A stretch of DNA of 37,529 bases from a virus (IMGVR_UViG_2778261576_000005:1-37529); one strand, 5' to 3'; counted from the first letter of the stretch, positions 22,214 to 34,007 are shown. The notes: generated from the letters alone by a model not told the origin. Translations and numbers: made by a program.

Positions 22214-22494
22214 TAGTGCCTCAGATGATCAACCAGACGTGCAACGTTGCCTCTGACGGCCACCAGCACGGAAAGAAAAATAGTATTCGCCACGATAATG
22301 GGCCATGAGGAATGGGGATAAATCCCACAGAGATAGGCCAATGGAACAGCACTGTATGTAACAGTAATCAGCCAGGCTAAACGTGAAACCCAAGGACGAT
22401 GCCGCGAATCACCACGACGATAAAACATCAGAGTAATAACAACACAAGCACATAACAGCGCATTTATAGTTGCTGTCGGGTCATTTAGCTCCAC
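22213..22494 (-). CDS. Holin / lysis membrane protein
   Basis: 93 aa with 2-3 hydrophobic helices directly upstream of endolysin. Confidence 0.55.
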   Translation of the reverse strand: MELNDPTATINALLCACVVITLMFYRRGDSRHRPWVSRLAWLITVTYSAVPLAYLCGIYPHSSWPIIVANTIFLSVLVAVRGNVARLVDHLRH

Positions 22495-22867
22495 CTGAAC
22501 CTCCCCGGCGCGTTATGAGCGCCACCAGCGAGCCGATATCCTGATTATTCAGGAACGTCAGGATTTTAACGGCTAAAGCAGAGACGATTACGGCACCAAT
22601 AGCATCCAGAGGTTTATCACTGTATCCGGTCAAGTTCGCCAGCTTGGAGCCAACCAACCCAGAGCAAAGGATCCCGGCAATATATGACACGATAAAATAT
22701 GCCAGTCGGCGCGATGCTCTCAGATCTGCTGCTGTTGCTATGTAGAATACAGCCCCTGCAAATGCGCCAAATACAACGCCGTAATCAGTTCCGGTCAGCA
22801 GTCCATAAACACTGGCACCCGTCAGGGCACCACCAGCCAGCCCAGTACCGGAAATCGGATCGGACAT
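22481..22867 (-). CDS. Holin-like membrane protein
   Basis: 128 aa, Gly/Ala-rich with 3-4 predicted TM helices; GAGGGGG SD. Confidence 0.55.
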   Translation of the reverse strand: MSDPISGTGLAGGALTGASVYGLLTGTDYGVVFGAFAGAVFYIATAADLRASRRLAYFIVSYIAGILCSGLVGSKLANLTGYSDKPLDAIGAVIVSALAVKILTFLNNQDIGSLVALITRRGGSGGAK

Positions 22868-23354: not shown

Positions 23355-24107
23355 TTATCTTGTCACTTTTCTCAATTGTGTCTCTGCATATGCTTCTTCC
23401 TGCCAGCACTTTGTAACCAGTTTATCAATGACATCTGCATATCCTTTGTACCACTGATAATCCGTCAGATCCGGTACCAGCTTCTGGACATGATGCCGCG
23501 CCAGTGTGGTTGGTAAACGGCTAAACCGGTTTCCATTGCAACGCCCACAAATCTTATAAACAGGCGCACCATGAAGCCGGGTTCTTTTTTCATCCAGTAC
23601 AATACCTTTCCCCTTGCACCCTCTGCACGCTGTGCTGACTTCTCCCTTACCATGACAATGCTGACATAGTTCCTTCACCCACTCTTCCTTGATAACAGAT
23701 TCCCCGCTTCTGGAGTGTTTCACCACTTCGCGCAATACATTATGAAATCCAGTACCAGCACAATGCTCACAGCGAGCCTTACTTGCCGCAGACCTGGAAT
23801 AATCAGCAAAGGCAAAATTCACAAGGTAAGGGATGATCTGTAACCGGGTTTCTTCACTCAATTTGTTCAATGTCGGGTTATCCAGTGCCATCGCGTAATT
23901 GAGCAGACCTTCAATCGCAAACTGAGGATCCTGAACACCAACTTTTGCCAGGAATAAGGCAAACCCAAGCGGTGCTTTCGACTGCACCATCCCCTGCGCA
24001 GCCATTACATCCGTAATTGTTAAACCACCAGAGCCTGTCGCCGGTGCGTCATCGCTCAATTTTGGAGATTTTGGGGAGTAATATTTTGGTAAGGCTTCAA
24101 GGTTCAT
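23355..24107 (-). CDS. Late antiterminator Q-like protein (QuuQ-type, 250 aa)
   Basis: Directly upstream of PR'/tR'/lysis genes; four CxxCxGxG-type motifs; DUF968 gene adjacent as in Qin prophage. Confidence 0.65.
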   Translation of the reverse strand: MNLEALPKYYSPKSPKLSDDAPATGSGGLTITDVMAAQGMVQSKAPLGFALFLAKVGVQDPQFAIEGLLNYAMALDNPTLNKLSEETRLQIIPYLVNFAFADYSRSAASKARCEHCAGTGFHNVLREVVKHSRSGESVIKEEWVKELCQHCHGKGEVSTACRGCKGKGIVLDEKRTRLHGAPVYKICGRCNGNRFSRLPTTLARHHVQKLVPDLTDYQWYKGYADVIDKLVTKCWQEEAYAETQLRKVTR

Positions 24108-28618: not shown

Positions 28619-28839
28619 GCTGCACCTCCGAGATGCTTCATGTTTTTTCCGGAGCAAAAGGCTATAAGCGGCATACTGACGCGGTAATTACGGCCCAGCG
28701 GTTCACAAACCACCTTCTGACATTCACGGTCAACCAGGCTAACACGTAGAACATGCCCTGCAGGCGTGGTGTACCACTGACCGGGGCGAGGACAACGGAA
28801 AGTCTGATTGGTAAATCGTTTGAAAATATTCCGGATCAT
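28615..28839 (-). CDS. Small Cys-containing basic protein, translationally coupled between Rha and replication gene
   Basis: 74 aa; ATGA overlaps at both ends; four Cys residues. Confidence 0.45.
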   Translation of the reverse strand: MIRNIFKRFTNQTFRCPRPGQWYTTPAGHVLRVSLVDRECQKVVCEPLGRNYRVSMPLIAFCSGKNMKHLGGAA

Positions 28840-29987
28840 TTGCGCCCCCTTACCTCTGAAGAGTTCAGCGACGAATGAATAAGACGGGCAAGAAATGCCG
28901 CATCGTTAATTCGGTCATACAGACTTACAGCCAGCGGTGATTCAGCTTTTTCCAGCATGGGATAAAGCTGCTGCAACCAGACCTGATGAATTGATGAAAT
29001 GTAGGAACAGAGAACGCTGGCGTTATGTGCAACGTCGCTCGGTACAGCGGGCTTTGAAAGCTGTTTCTCCATCTGGTTAAAGGCATTGATATATGCCTCT
29101 TTGAACTGGGCAGCACGTTTACCCGTGAAACCCATAGCAAGAAACGCAAAACCGTCGCGTGTGATTTGGTAGCAAGGAAGTTTGCGACCTGTGCAATCAG
29201 TGTAATCACTCACCGAAAAATTGCGGGCAGTGAATGATGCTGAGCATTCAAGCGTGCGGATCTTTTTCAGTACATCGTCATGACGTTTGGAGAAGAAGTT
29301 GGCAACAGCCAGGGATGAAGTAACAGCCTGACCATCAACGATGGCAATTTCAGGTTGAGTGAGGGTTGGGATCGTAGCCATGATGGCAGCCTCTTTGGTG
29401 ATTTTTAATAACTCACCACCAAGGCTTTCCACGACCTTATTGGTGGTGAGACATACAGGGGTGGAAATACCGGTCACCAAAGAACCCGGCCCAACCGAAG
29501 TTGGCCCTGCACGCCCCACCATAATTTGGGCGTAATGCTGCTCATGACACAAAAAAACCGCAAGAGCGCGGTTGTGCGCTTTGGTGAATTCCGGGTTTCC
29601 ACGCCCGGCACCCGTTTTATAAGGTGCCTGAACAGTGTAACGTCCCGGAATGGCAGAATCAATGTGCTGGTGGTCCTTCACACTCAACAAAATCACGCCT
29701 GAATTTCCACAAAGGACTAAAGCACTCATGCGGGTAGTCTTTGCGAAGATAGATAACGCGCTGTGTTTCTGGCTCCCAACGAATAACATGAACATAAAGT
29801 CCTCTTCCGTCACGAAACCAGCGGTTAAGTTCCTGCACAACTCGCCCCCCACAGTCAGGTAAAGTTCTCTGTGGTTACTTACAGCCAGGTGATTTGGTAA
29901 TCTGCATTCATGCCGTAACAACAGGTGTGCAGCGACACTGACCACCAGCTGTTGCGACAAACGGTTATTTGCCGTTAAACTGTTCAT
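28836..29987 (-). CDS. Rha-family regulatory domain protein (Rha domain from internal ATG 29381; 202-codon open N-terminal extension)
   Basis: Rha motifs in the C-terminal half; ORF start at 29987 makes an ATGA overlap with the upstream gene stop. Confidence 0.55.
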   Translation of the reverse strand: MNSLTANNRLSQQLVVSVAAHLLLRHECRLPNHLAVSNHRELYLTVGGELCRNLTAGFVTEEDFMFMLFVGSQKHSALSIFAKTTRMSALVLCGNSGVILLSVKDHQHIDSAIPGRYTVQAPYKTGAGRGNPEFTKAHNRALAVFLCHEQHYAQIMVGRAGPTSVGPGSLVTGISTPVCLTTNKVVESLGGELLKITKEAAIMATIPTLTQPEIAIVDGQAVTSSLAVANFFSKRHDDVLKKIRTLECSASFTARNFSVSDYTDCTGRKLPCYQITRDGFAFLAMGFTGKRAAQFKEAYINAFNQMEKQLSKPAVPSDVAHNASVLCSYISSIHQVWLQQLYPMLEKAESPLAVSLYDRINDAAFLARLIHSSLNSSEVRGRK

Positions 29988-30595: not shown

Positions 30596-30793
30596 TTATG
30601 CCGCAGCACTGTTAGTCTTTTGATATAAAGACACGTCAACTTTCAGTTTCCCGTTAGTAATTTTTTCTAACTGGTACGCTCGGCCTTCAGGAATAATCTC
30701 AGGCCACTCTGAAACAGACGGATGCTTAATACCTAGGGCTTCGGCGGTTTTACAAACTCCGCCGAAATAATTAATCACGTCGGATTTCCGCAT
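30596..30793 (-). CDS. Cro-like repressor (YdaS/Cro family HTH)
   Basis: 65 aa; divergent from the CI gene across the operator region; GGAGA SD. Confidence 0.7.
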   Translation of the reverse strand: MRKSDVINYFGGVCKTAEALGIKHPSVSEWPEIIPEGRAYQLEKITNGKLKVDVSLYQKTNSAAA

Positions 30794-30825: not shown

Positions 30826-30890
30826 ATGTAGGATATCCAACATACCAATGTCAAGAATCCTACATGGGCATGTGGTAGGATTGCCTACAT
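30826..30890. promoter_or_regulatory. OR region: three operator repeats with divergent PR (minus) and PRM (plus)
   Basis: ATGTAGGATATCCAACAT at 30826-30843 plus two related sites at about 30848-30865 and 30870-30890; minus-strand TTGACA-17-CTACAT upstream of cro. Confidence 0.6.
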
Positions 30891-31542
30891 GATGAACATG
30901 AGTGATCGTATTCGCCAAAGGCGAAAAGAACTGAACCTGACACAACAAGCACTGGCTGATTTGACTGGTGTGAACCGTGTCACGGTTACTGGATGGGAAA
31001 AGGACGACTACCAACCAAATGGAGCCAACCTTCAAGCCCTAGCCAACGCACTTAAATGCGATCCTCTGTGGCTTGTTAGCGGAAAAGGCTCGCCTGAACC
31101 AAAGATAAATCTAAAACCTGAAATATTCGCAGTTAAAAAAGTCCCCCTCATCTCGTGGGTTCAGGCGGGTTCATGGACAATGACGGAGCCTGGTGTCAGG
31201 AAAGAAGATGCTGAAGAGTGGGTTTATACTACCGCCCTTGTATCAGAAATGGCATTTGCACTACGGGTCCGTGGTGATTCAATGACCAATCCCCTCGGCT
31301 CACCATCGATACCAGAAGGTTCTATCGTTATCGTAGAGCCAGATATTATTGATACAGAGTGTATTAACGGAAAAATCGTTGTTGCCCATATCAATGGTGG
31401 GCAAGAAGCGACACTCAAAAAATTTGTTGAGGACTGGCCGAACAGGTATCTCGTCCCACTAAATCCTAACTATAAAACTATTGAATGCGGTGAGAACTGC
31501 AGAATAGTTGGTCTTGTCAAACAAGTAATAATGGATTTTTGA
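30889..31542 (+). CDS. CI-type prophage repressor (HTH plus S24 LexA-like autopeptidase)
   Basis: N-terminal XRE-type HTH; C-terminal GDSM Ser nucleophile and conserved Lys. Confidence 0.85.
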   Translation: MMNMSDRIRQRRKELNLTQQALADLTGVNRVTVTGWEKDDYQPNGANLQALANALKCDPLWLVSGKGSPEPKINLKPEIFAVKKVPLISWVQAGSWTMTEPGVRKEDAEEWVYTTALVSEMAFALRVRGDSMTNPLGSPSIPEGSIVIVEPDIIDTECINGKIVVAHINGGQEATLKKFVEDWPNRYLVPLNPNYKTIECGENCRIVGLVKQVIMDF

Positions 31543-31566: not shown

Positions 31567-31588
31567 CCGGGGTATCCCCGGTTTTTTT
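31567..31588 (+). terminator. Intrinsic terminator after the CI gene
   Basis: CCGGGG-tat-CCCCGG followed by seven T. Confidence 0.7.
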
Positions 31589-31604
31589 ATGAGCCTATCT
31601 TTTT

Positions 31605-31658
31605 ATGTAGGATAACCAACATAAACTCTTGACACTCACATGTTGGATATCCTACATT
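31605..31658 (+). promoter_or_regulatory. OL/PL: two operator repeats bracketing TTGACA-N18-TACATT
   Basis: ATGTAGGATAACCAACAT at 31605-31622 and its near reverse complement at 31640-31657; -35 at 31629-31634. Confidence 0.6.
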
Positions 31659-31663
31659 TGTTT

Positions 31664-31752
31664 TTAGAGTTGTGGTGAATGCGCAGGCTGATGCGCGAAA
31701 GACATTGCAGCTATTGCGGAAAAGAGCTGTTCGGCGGGGCCATTAAACGCCC
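31664..31752 (+). repeat. 89-bp direct repeat, copy 1
   Basis: Identical to 32292-32380 except two mismatches; contains a GCGCA-N6-TGCGC hairpin and a GCTCTTTT-complement motif. Confidence 0.85.
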
Positions 31753-31856
31753 ATATCTGGAGGTTAAAGAACAAAATGAAAGTCCAGATTTTAAACAATA
31801 ACTGTGAAGTCGTTTGGGCGTAAAACATGACCGCGCGTAGACCAAGGGAGGAAAAA

Positions 31857-32033
31857 GTGGGAATAGTTAGAAATCAAGCAGATATATTGAAAATCAGCTC
31901 TGAATTGCTTGGAGTTTTGAAAAGTGAGCTCACCGCACATGGCATCGAGCCCACTGACGAAAATTTAAGTTGGGTTTTGTCGATTATTCAACAATCACTC
32001 AAGCCCAGCCTCAGCAAACTTTTTATCGAGTAG
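31857..32033 (+). CDS. Small hypothetical protein (58 aa from GTG 31857; alternative ATG 31827 gives an Arg-rich N-terminus)
   Basis: GGGAGG SD 5 nt before GTG; within the AT-rich cassette; 3' end overlaps the convergent ORF. Confidence 0.4.
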   Translation: MGIVRNQADILKISSELLGVLKSELTAHGIEPTDENLSWVLSIIQQSLKPSLSKLFIE

Positions 32034-32186
32034 TGCTTCGAACTTATCGTAAAGCTTGCTTATGTCGTCTATCGGGTTTTCTGACGTACTGTAATTTTTA
32101 TCTGATGTCATGGCAGCAGTCTGATATGCAGTGTGAGTCTTAACCGATAGTTGGAATAAATAAAGAATTTTTTCTTCTTTGGTCAT
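31995..32186 (-). CDS. Small hypothetical protein (63 aa)
   Basis: AAGGAAA SD 5 nt before ATG at 32186; MTKEEKILYLFQL...; within the AT-rich cassette. Confidence 0.45.
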   Translation of the reverse strand: MTKEEKILYLFQLSVKTHTAYQTAAMTSDKNYSTSENPIDDISKLYDKFEALLDKKFAEAGLE

Positions 32187-32291
32187 AACTATTTCCTTCT
32201 TGGCTATATGAAAACACCAAGATACCACCGAGCCTGAAGTGGTGAAAAGACAGGCACATAACAGCTAAGTATTTTCAACCAGAGAGAATCC

Positions 32292-32380
32292 TTAGCGTTG
32301 TGGTGAATGCGCAGGCTGATGCGCGAAAGACATTGCAGCTATTGCGGAAAAGAGCTGTTCGGCGGGGCAATTAAACGCCC
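32292..32380 (+). repeat. 89-bp direct repeat, copy 2
   Basis: See copy 1; the copies flank a roughly 540-bp AT-rich segment. Confidence 0.85.
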
Positions 32381-32627
32381 GTGAGAGTCTGAAATAACCG
32401 CAAGCCGGAGATCAGCACCGGTCACCACAACAGCCACTGCTTTGGCGGTACCAGTTTGTACACTTGCTTCCGGCTGGTACCGCTCTTTTTACAAAACAGA
32501 GAAGAGCATCACCGGACGACGGGCTCATAACCCAATCCATCCGGGCGTCTGCCACCGCAGGTGTTCTTCTCTGTTTTGTGGAGAAACCAACCGACCTTGC
32601 AGGGTCGATATGATGAGGAGCAGCAAA

Positions 32628-32990
32628 ATGGCTAGCGAACGCAGTACTGATGTGCAGGCATTTATCGGGGAGCTGGACGGCGGCGTATTTGAAACCAAAA
32701 TCGGCGCAGTTCTCAGTGAAGTCGCTTCCGGTGTGATGAACACGAAAACCAAAGGTAAGGTCTCGCTCAACCTGGAAATCGAACCGTTTGATGAGAACCG
32801 TGTGAAAATAAAACACAAACTCTCATATGTTCGCCCGACTAACCGCGGGAAAATTTCCGAAGAAGACACCACCGAAACGCCGATGTATGTCAATCGCGGT
32901 GGTCGCCTGACTATTCTGCAGGAAGACCAGGGACAATTACTGACTCTTGCCGGTGAGCCTGACGGAAAACTCCGCGCAGCAGGTCATTAA
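32628..32990 (+). CDS. YfdP-like early protein (120 aa)
   Basis: AGGAG SD 7 nt before ATG 32628; size and position match the KplE1 yfdP-yfdQ-yfdR order as recalled. Confidence 0.5.
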   Translation: MASERSTDVQAFIGELDGGVFETKIGAVLSEVASGVMNTKTKGKVSLNLEIEPFDENRVKIKHKLSYVRPTNRGKISEEDTTETPMYVNRGGRLTILQEDQGQLLTLAGEPDGKLRAAGH

Positions 32991-33880: not shown

Positions 33881-34007
33881 TTTCATTACTGCAAATGCCC
33901 CTGCGGGGGCATTTATGGAAACGTAATTAACTCAATAATCACCGGATGGTGAGAGCTTCCTTTTACCAGAATTCAGCGCGGTGCAGCGCATATACGTGGA
34001 GAACAAA

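Follow-up and report, generated by a model that had tools for sequence, protein, structure and literature searches.

The window analyzed here, a 37,529-nt stretch of viral DNA, is a lambdoid prophage in which PL is fixed by a cI-like repressor gene, cro, mirror-image promoters, and four copies of a single operator palindrome (repeat family D2/D3/I3) that is common to PL and the cI-cro intergenic region. We placed the PL transcription start at approximately 31665 to 31667. Transcription from this point runs rightward through positions 32381 to 32627 into yfdP, and the operon continues in the order yfdP, yfdQ, yfdR and on to the excisionase gene, with a Q-like antiterminator gene and a holin gene on the opposite arm (Table 1). 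The interval from 32381 to 32627 is the distal part of the untranslated PL leader of an N-less lambdoid prophage, and it is made of separable RNA modules. The initial annotation had described a structured leader ahead of the early-left genes, lying after the second copy of a repeat (32292 to 32380) and before a YfdP-like ORF, and this description stands: the interval is folded (-93.1 kcal/mol as a whole, z = -4.7), conserved, and downstream of PL. All three plus-strand features named there (a pair of arms, a boxA-like string, and an inverted repeat) are present, and structure prediction and covariation across relatives show conserved pairing and support the fold of the element that we call C.

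Table 1. Features of the PL leader and its surroundings, with positions counted from the first nucleotide of the window
Feature	Position	Strand	Remarks
Holin gene	22481-22867		Opposite arm from the PL operon
Q-like antiterminator gene	23355-24107		Opposite arm from the PL operon
cro	30596-30793	-	
PR promoter	30854-30825	-	TTGACA-18-TACATT; mirror image of PL
cI-like repressor gene	30889-31542	+	
Operator palindromes around PL	31605-31622, 31640-31657		Repeat family D2/D3/I3
PL promoter	31629-31658	+	TTGACA-18-TACATT; promoter scan, 10/12 matches
Repeat copy 1	31664-31752	+	First 89 nt of module A; direct repeat D1, starts exactly at the PL start
Insert between repeat copies	31753-32291		539 bp, two small ORFs; truncates repeat copy 1
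Insert ORF 1	31827-32033	+	phrog_15476, PHROG of unknown function
Insert ORF 2	31995-32228	-	phrog_2605, PHROG of unknown function; convergent with ORF 1
Module A, complete	32292-32431	+	Multi-hairpin domain of ~140 nt; last 51 nt inside 32381-32627
B, intrinsic-terminator-type hairpin and U-tract	32445-32490	+	Stem 32445-32454/32474-32483
C, conserved three-helix leader RNA	32486-32584 (core 32501-32569)	+	~100 nt
Helix P1 of C			Closing helix, ~25 bp
Helix P2 of C	32512-32544		
Helix P3 of C	32545-32558		
P2 tip, CGGGCUCAUAACCC	32520-32533	+	GGG/CCC stem, 7-nt loop CUCAUAA
D, small hairpin	32592-32607	+	CGACC-UUGCAG-GGUCG; between C and the ribosome-binding site
SD sequence	32615-32620	+	GAGGAG
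yfdP-family gene	32628 (ATG) to 32990 (stop)	+	First early-left gene; 99-100% identity to E. coli/Shigella YfdP loci
Terminator-like hairpin	33893-33914	+	AAAUGCCCC-UGC-GGGGGCAUUU; between yfdQ and yfdR, same operon

Alignments of relatives resolved the leader into four modules in the order A-B-C-D, followed by the SD sequence and the start codon; the interval holds the 3' end of module A and then B, C, D, and the SD sequence up to the start of yfdP at 32628. Relatives came from two independent samples: 31 loci collected around YfdP homologues in many genera of Enterobacterales, and over 120 viral contigs selected by the motif GGCTCATNNCCCAATC.

A conserved RNA domain in its own right, module A gave no match in Rfam. 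Its closing helix pairs GUUGUGGUGA (32297 to 32306) with UCACCACAAC (32422 to 32431; inverted repeats I24/I25, composite fold), and the same pair of arms occurs at a spacing of 115 to 130 nt in many relatives. Direct repeat D1 comprises 31664 to 31752 and 32292 to 32380, and its two copies are 98% identical over 89 nt. Because this repeat begins at the PL start and brackets a 539-bp insert, the PL leader has been split by insertion; the insert resembles a moron put into the leader by recombination. In another contig (L106), module A stands after C, in a late operon. The module also holds a short Arg/Lys-rich ORF (32303 to 32374, with a copy at 31675 to 31746) that reads VNAQADARKTLQLLRKRAVRRGN, has an ATG start in phage P1 (MNAQADARK...), and is reminiscent of the arginine-rich motif at the N terminus of lambda N; SfV-type and LLS-type relatives do not preserve its frame. 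A hammerhead-like CUGAUG...GAAA in module A was dropped as a candidate, as it is not conserved in SfV-type relatives. Just upstream of B, a GU-rich single-stranded string, UGCUGUGUGUAGUC(U/A)U, is conserved in most relatives (L003, L004, L006, L019, L025, and others), and the window has AGCCACUGCUUU in its place.

Hairpin B has the form of an intrinsic terminator. The arms given in the initial annotation, GGTACCAG and CTGGTACC, were found at 32447 to 32454 and 32474 to 32481 and extend outward to GCGGTACCAG and CTGGTACCGC (Table 1), forming a stem of 10 to 13 bp with a 19-nt loop directly before the U-tract TCTTTTT (32484 to 32490). The predicted fold (RNAfold) has 13 pairs and a free energy of -21.2 kcal/mol (z = -5.2), and none of 200 shuffles folded as well. 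A simple terminator scan limited to loops of 3 to 8 nt missed B, whose loop is longer than usual. As in an intrinsic terminator, the hairpin is G+C rich, immediately precedes a U-tract on the transcribed strand, and is kept by position and shape rather than by sequence: a hairpin (median, -25 kcal/mol) followed by T5-8 stands at this position in 90 of 93 distinct contexts among relatives, with 39 different fully paired stem sequences that are in part wholly unrelated (e.g., TGCCCATC/GGTGGGCA versus GTTCGC/GCGAAC). B is thus predicted, from sequence, to terminate transcription. The distance from the end of the U-tract to the motif of C is 22 to 36 nt in the contexts preceded by B. The loop of B is mostly 13 to 47 nt long in the early-left form and 3 to 5 nt long in some relatives (the LLS-like group and late-operon copies). 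In many relatives (L010, L025, L029, L032, and L034), the enlarged loop carries a conserved GGAGGA...(A/G)TGTTCTG (GGAGGA and ATGTTCTG in some), which amounts to an SD-like sequence and a start codon that reads into the 3' arm of the terminator; such a loop may make B a translation-sensitive gate.

The boxA-like string CGCTCTTTTTA is present as initially annotated (32481 to 32491), but it consists of the 3' arm of B and the U-tract and is poorly conserved: CGCTCTT (32481 to 32487 in the window) was kept in only 10 of 67 distinct junctions, against 90 of 93 contexts for a hairpin followed by T5-8, and we therefore rejected the reading of this string as boxA of a nut site. An attenuator had been proposed as well, and a terminator-type hairpin in the leader does make attenuation or antitermination logic reasonable; the evidence takes that proposal no further, and no complement of the 5' arm of B, with which a classical attenuator switch would work, was seen by eye upstream of B. 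A likeness of GGCGGTAC to ops, the RfaH element, was dropped because of a mismatch to ops at position 8 and because relatives differ in this arm.

Immediately downstream, the leader folds into element C, whose long closing helix corresponds to the imperfect inverted repeat of roughly 15 bp in the initial annotation. The repeat exists, but its arms are 25 nt long (32491 to 32515 and 32555 to 32579, 84% complementary), and the base of helix P1 uses the U-tract of B and GUGGAGAA. As a 105-nt hairpin, C has a predicted free energy of -47.7 kcal/mol (z = -6.7; 0 of 200 shuffles). When the three-helix model was applied to an alignment of 44 diverse sequences (A1), 89.9% of cells were paired, compared with 36 to 51% for slid controls, and 15 pairs had changed on both sides, compared with 6.7 ± 1.6 in shuffled alignments (0 of 500). 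RNAalifold, run independently, recovered the same three helices, with compensatory changes at 12 of 15 pairs. The pairs of C include 57 G-U pairs versus 18 A-C mismatches, which favors the plus-strand RNA as the folded species. Helix P1 is nearly perfect in the window and covaries in relatives; P3 is variable, and extended P3 arms of relatives often end in anticodon-loop-like (C/U)UCCUAA loops.

Searches with a covariance model of C (R1, filters off) returned a single match in the 37.5-kb window (83.3 bits, 32501 to 32569), with no second copy elsewhere in the window, including the region downstream of PR. Rfam 15 gave nothing at gathering score in the interval and only noise (E of ~9) in 31600 to 32700, ARAGORN found no tRNA or tmRNA genes in the window, C has no CCA-like 3' end, and the literature yielded nothing for the motif string. 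Several other readings of C were set aside. Open reading frames cover it (32464 to 32613 on the plus strand, 32412 to 32816 on the minus strand, and annotated CDSs in mEp460 and cdtI), but a coding role was rejected because the frame relative to the conserved motif differs among relatives and P3 varies in length by non-multiples of 3. The likeness of the 3' strand of P1 (UGCUCUUUUGUGUUGUGUGG) to boxA/boxC is explained by stem complementarity and is absent in short-stem forms, and TTATGAGCC at 31587 to 31595, which is complementary to the loop of C, was judged a chance match and is absent in Ayreon.

The best-conserved part of C resembles a tRNA. The tip of P2 (CGGGCUCAUAACCC, 14 nt) matches the anticodon stem-loop of initiator tRNA-fMet from E. 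coli (metZ, gene positions 29 to 42) at every position; agreement over the anticodon arm is 15 of 17 positions, and 0 of 3000 shuffles reached 14 nt. C carries a copy of the anticodon arm of a real tRNA, and no cloverleaf was found by the tRNA finder. A stem of three G-C pairs (GGG/CCC) is a mark of initiator tRNAs. With its conserved flank (GA-C...AAUC), the tip forms the invariant part of C, GA-C-GGG-CUCAUAA-CCC-AA-UC (32518 to 32537), which is the best-conserved part of alignment A1; one G of the GGG stem is missing from 8 of the 44 sequences in the alignment. Loop variants were CUCAUAA (72), CUCAUUC (17), and CUCAUUA (5) in a sample that had been selected on the motif itself, and in the YfdP-anchored sample only one locus (L033) departs from the loop motif. 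The loop is kept across genera while the stems change, which points to a conserved host partner, and we regard the identity with the initiator anticodon arm, judged from the sequence, as real mimicry or descent.

Downstream of C, hairpin D alone is not significant (z = -0.4), and 76 of 89 distinct relatives have [U/G]GCAG, as in its loop, no more than 45 nt beyond GGAGA. The UUGCAG/UGGCAG loop (32597 to 32602 in the window) recurs in D and also in P3 of 25 of the 89 sequences. A loop pairing with the SD sequence or AUGAG of yfdP was considered and rejected, as it is not consistent across relatives; AUGAG start contexts also occur in relatives without C. The yfdP homologues of relatives are annotated YfdP. 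Farther along the operon, Ayreon has an annotated terminator just after its yfdQ homologue, at the place corresponding to the hairpin between yfdQ and yfdR in the window, and in L038 and other contigs C is joined directly to this hairpin, with yfdP and yfdQ deleted. On the other side of the immunity region, the PR operon contains a stretch (29439 to 29627, minus strand) with Rfam matches to C4 antisense RNA (81 bits) and IsrK Hfq-binding RNA (68 bits), inside a long mechanical ORF (28836 to 29987); it looks like an immI-like antirepressor control region of the P1/Gifsy type.

The element is common and has gone unannotated. The interval from 32381 to 32627 matches 70 phage records, including mEp460, SfV, SfII, SfIV, cdtI, Ayreon, several Stx2 phages, ST64B, and a Klebsiella phage, and the hosts include Shigella and Salmonella. 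B-C-D (32440 to 32627, 188 nt) has a match in 2493 of 5426 complete E. coli genomes (46%), at up to 5 places per genome. It is nowhere annotated as RNA, and spurious "hypothetical protein" calls often cover it. In K-12, prophage CPS-53 (L158, 3360 to 3560) has lost the A-B-C leader and has iteron-like repeats (GACGGGTCAGATTTTGA...) before yfdP, which is probably why C was missed by K-12-based transcript studies. Overall, the interval holds a leader RNA that is widespread and unannotated and that has an unusual, tRNA-like arm.

C is not bound to one gene. The first gene after C belongs to the YfdP family at 93 loci, and it is RdgC-like at 15, YfdR at 7, a holin gene at 4, and Xis-like at 1, so a role for C as a YfdP-specific operator was dropped. 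The motif lies 44 to 307 nt from the start of that gene, and C is always part of the 5' UTR of whichever gene in the operon is translated first. As first genes and distances vary while the spacing from the U-tract stays at 22 to 36 nt, C appears tied to the terminator and not to any one gene. A short-stem form of C, with a P1 of 6 bp, follows terminators between Q and the holin gene in other phages (L155, L076, L039, L106, and the isolated phage vB_EcoM-689R2), and L155 has both this form and the long form beside the repressor gene. B-C therefore marks the heads of early-left and late operons, and no C copy was seen in a PR operon. The late arrangement recalls lambda PR'-tR' and the StxS small RNA of Stx phages, in which a terminator gate likewise heads the operon, and late B-C stands exactly there; unlike StxS, which is a short terminated RNA, C comes after the terminator, in the read-through mRNA.

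Related modules occur in phage P1. A near-identical module A lies between trnT and plp (L163, 1418 to 1553) and is 98% identical to that of the window over the 52 nt tested by BLAST (32381 to 32432); its closing helix has a compensatory change (GTTGTGATGA/TCATCACAAC), and another P1 copy has GTTGCGGTG/CACCGCAA. Model R1 found two weaker C-like copies (33.5 and 22.5 bits), whose loops are GGGUUCAUAUCCCAAUC and GGGGUCAUAUCCCAAUC (variants GUCAUAU and UUCAUAU) and keep the equivalents of U33, CAU, and A37. The stretch of about 900 nt from trnT to tciA in the tRNA operon (L163, 1340 to 2236) is an array in which A-like modules alternate with C-like modules, and it also contains a tRNA-like element with a canonical T-loop (GGGUUCGAAUCCC). 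Its sole annotated gene is the 58-aa plp ORF, which overlaps the RNA modules and may be spurious. The plp-upl region was dispensable in a CRISPRi screen (PMC10695390).

The initial annotation noted no obvious N-like gene and suggested a nut- or put-like element. The first point was borne out: among the PL-operon ORFs tested, none matched an N-family PHROG, and six annotated phages (mEp460, SfV, ST64B, LLS, Ayreon, and phiSTEC1575-Stx2k) have no N gene between the repressor gene and yfdP. Membership among the put sites did not hold up, as neither sequence nor structure resembles put of HK022 or HK639 and PR has no copy. The put consensus GAACGGCGCG..UAAACCAUGCGUCGG had 0 matches in the window at up to 3 mismatches, model R1 had no match in HK022 or HK639, and HK022 putL and the HK639 "putL-like antiterminator RNA" are similar to one another but not to A or C. 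RNAs of the HK022 put type work in cis through the β' zinc-binding domain of RNA polymerase, without protein factors. The systems do have in common that they belong to lambdoid phages without N, place two adjacent stem-loops in the PL leader, and are candidates for protein-independent action, and a put-like logic is possible as an analogy for C. They differ in that C follows a terminator, its arms are enclosed by a closing helix, and its second copies, where seen, are in the late operon, whereas put has one copy after PL and one after PR. For LLS, which carries C, Casjens and colleagues describe no N homologue and possibly a put-like RNA (PMC12315714).

The lambda nutL/N-leader region is comparable in its map place between PL and the first early-left gene and in having a long hairpin just upstream of the ribosome-binding site of that gene. 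The leader described here differs from it in lacking N, in having a terminator upstream of C, and in that its boxA-like string is not conserved; lambda boxB also ends in a GNRA-like pentaloop, compared with the 7-nt anticodon-type loop of C. The nut-like suggestion thus fails, since there is no boxB/N pair and no nutR-like second copy.

The reading that we tentatively favor, by analogy, is that C controls elongation after a terminator in a terminator-gated leader. Transcripts from PL would make module A first and then B, a gate of the Rho-independent terminator type that would stop most of them. Those that pass B would immediately make C, a three-way-junction RNA with a copy of the initiator anticodon arm, followed by D, the SD sequence, and yfdP. 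C would act in cis and be recognized by a conserved host machine, working on the elongating complex, or on its coupling to a ribosome, just after the gate; the complex would thereby pass the long untranslated leader and later stop signals in the operon (terminator or Rho resistance). The logic would be that of HK022 put, carried out by an unrelated RNA. In lambda, it is these two classes of operon, early-left and late, that rely on antitermination. The anatomy of the leader, its conservation and covariation, the tie to terminators, and the independence of C from the gene that follows are shown here; gating by B, binding of a host factor by C, and an effect on elongation are inferred. We favor elongation because of the link to the terminator, these operon types, the lack of N, a second terminator-like hairpin farther down the operon, and C-like matches within a largely noncoding stretch of the phage P1 tRNA operon.

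Several observations count against elongation control. C lies downstream of B and, being a long hairpin beyond the terminator, cannot control it or help RNA polymerase pass it. There is no PR copy, unlike put, and late copies coexist with Q, which is already antiterminating. The loop of B is unusually long, and phage P1 has several copies in a region that is dispensable (PMC10695390). Moreover, binding to RNA polymerase would not account for an exact initiator anticodon arm, which points to a partner that reads tRNA, such as the 30S P site with IF3, MetRS, or an anticodon nuclease, and tRNA mimicry is better explained by roles in translation, in processing, or as a decoy than by elongation control.

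A role in translation, which we consider rather unlikely, would make C a tRNA-mimicking 5'-UTR element that docks the 30S subunit (P site/IF3) or MetRS, acting on the first cistron as a site of standby or repression, or setting off transcription-translation coupling early. The 14/14-nt identity, with its three initiator-type G-C pairs in the best-conserved part of C and agreement over 15 of 17 positions of the arm, argues for such docking, as does the retention of U33, CAU, and A37 equivalents in the divergent phage P1 copies, beside which stands a sister element with a canonical T-loop. The length of P2 is about that of an anticodon arm and a D arm stacked together, and the 5' UTR that holds C always belongs to the gene translated first. 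There is precedent in the thrS operator of E. coli, a leader hairpin that copies the anticodon stem-loop of tRNA-Thr, but C precedes varied genes unrelated to tRNA or translation, and the tRNA copied is the initiator. The variable distance to the start codon (44 to 307 nt), the pyrimidine at position 37 in the CUCAUUC variant (17 of 94), the 8 of 44 sequences without one G of the GGG stem, the different loop of L033, and the AUGAG start contexts in relatives without C all weigh against it, and it leaves the tight link to the terminator unexplained.

It is unlikely that B-C is a cassette for RNA processing or stability, in which P1 would be an RNase III site or the junction would be cut by a tRNA-processing nuclease, detaching the terminator-bearing leader and leaving the operon mRNA with a protective 5' structure. 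The hairpin of the lambda N leader is an RNase III site, a type of site that takes a duplex of about two helical turns, and C is similarly placed between the promoter-proximal leader and the first gene; its P1 of about 25 bp is nearly perfect in the window and covaries in relatives, and C-like modules lie among phage P1 tRNA genes that need processing. However, the P1 helix of late-operon copies, at 6 bp, is too short for RNase III, which would not need strict conservation of the loop either, and neither a tRNA (by ARAGORN) nor a CCA-like 3' end was found.

We also speculate, as a distinctly improbable reading, that C and its phage P1 relatives constitute an undescribed family of tRNA-like RNAs, located behind terminators where phage operons are untranslated, whose initiator-type anticodon arm would dock a ribosomal subunit or another initiator-tRNA reader on the nascent leader, couple the ribosome to RNA polymerase before any translation, and so shield N-less operons from Rho and later terminators.

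Very unlikely is a role for C as a decoy or target of a tRNA-directed nuclease or toxin (e.g., VapC), in counter-defence or as a toxin-sensing switch. VapC-type toxins cut initiator tRNA in the anticodon loop and are known in Shigella and Salmonella, which are among the hosts; such a role would account for an exact copy of the initiator anticodon arm and for several copies beside phage P1 tRNA genes, in a region that the phage can do without in the laboratory, which is often true of accessory anti-defence loci. A decoy should be abundant, yet C stands behind a terminator and is embedded in an mRNA leader rather than being a free small RNA, and it occurs throughout E. coli without a demonstrated tie to such toxins. 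Least likely of all is a nut-like site for a phage N-like protein and host Nus factors, with boxA and a boxB-like hairpin: CGCTCTTTTTA resembles boxA in the window, phage 21 boxB has a CUAACC loop (PMC12550061) to which CUCAUAA and the (C/U)UCCUAA loops of relatives bear a likeness, and module A has its Arg/Lys-rich ORF, but the comparative data largely refute it, as the boxA-like string belongs to the terminator (10 of 67 junctions), there is no N gene (PMC12315714 for LLS), the frame of the short ORF is not kept in SfV-type or LLS-type relatives, and the PR operon has no copy.

These results bear on the question of how early-left transcription passes terminators in N-less lambdoid phages such as SfV, ST64B, mEp460, cdtI, LLS, and several Stx2 phages. 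The RNA elements conserved in their PL leaders have now been identified and are neither nut nor put. A leader that carries an initiator anticodon arm and stands at the heads of early-left and late operons is a concrete, testable handle on what would be a new type of control of phage genes, and C would bear on genome annotation and possibly on gene expression in Stx phages.
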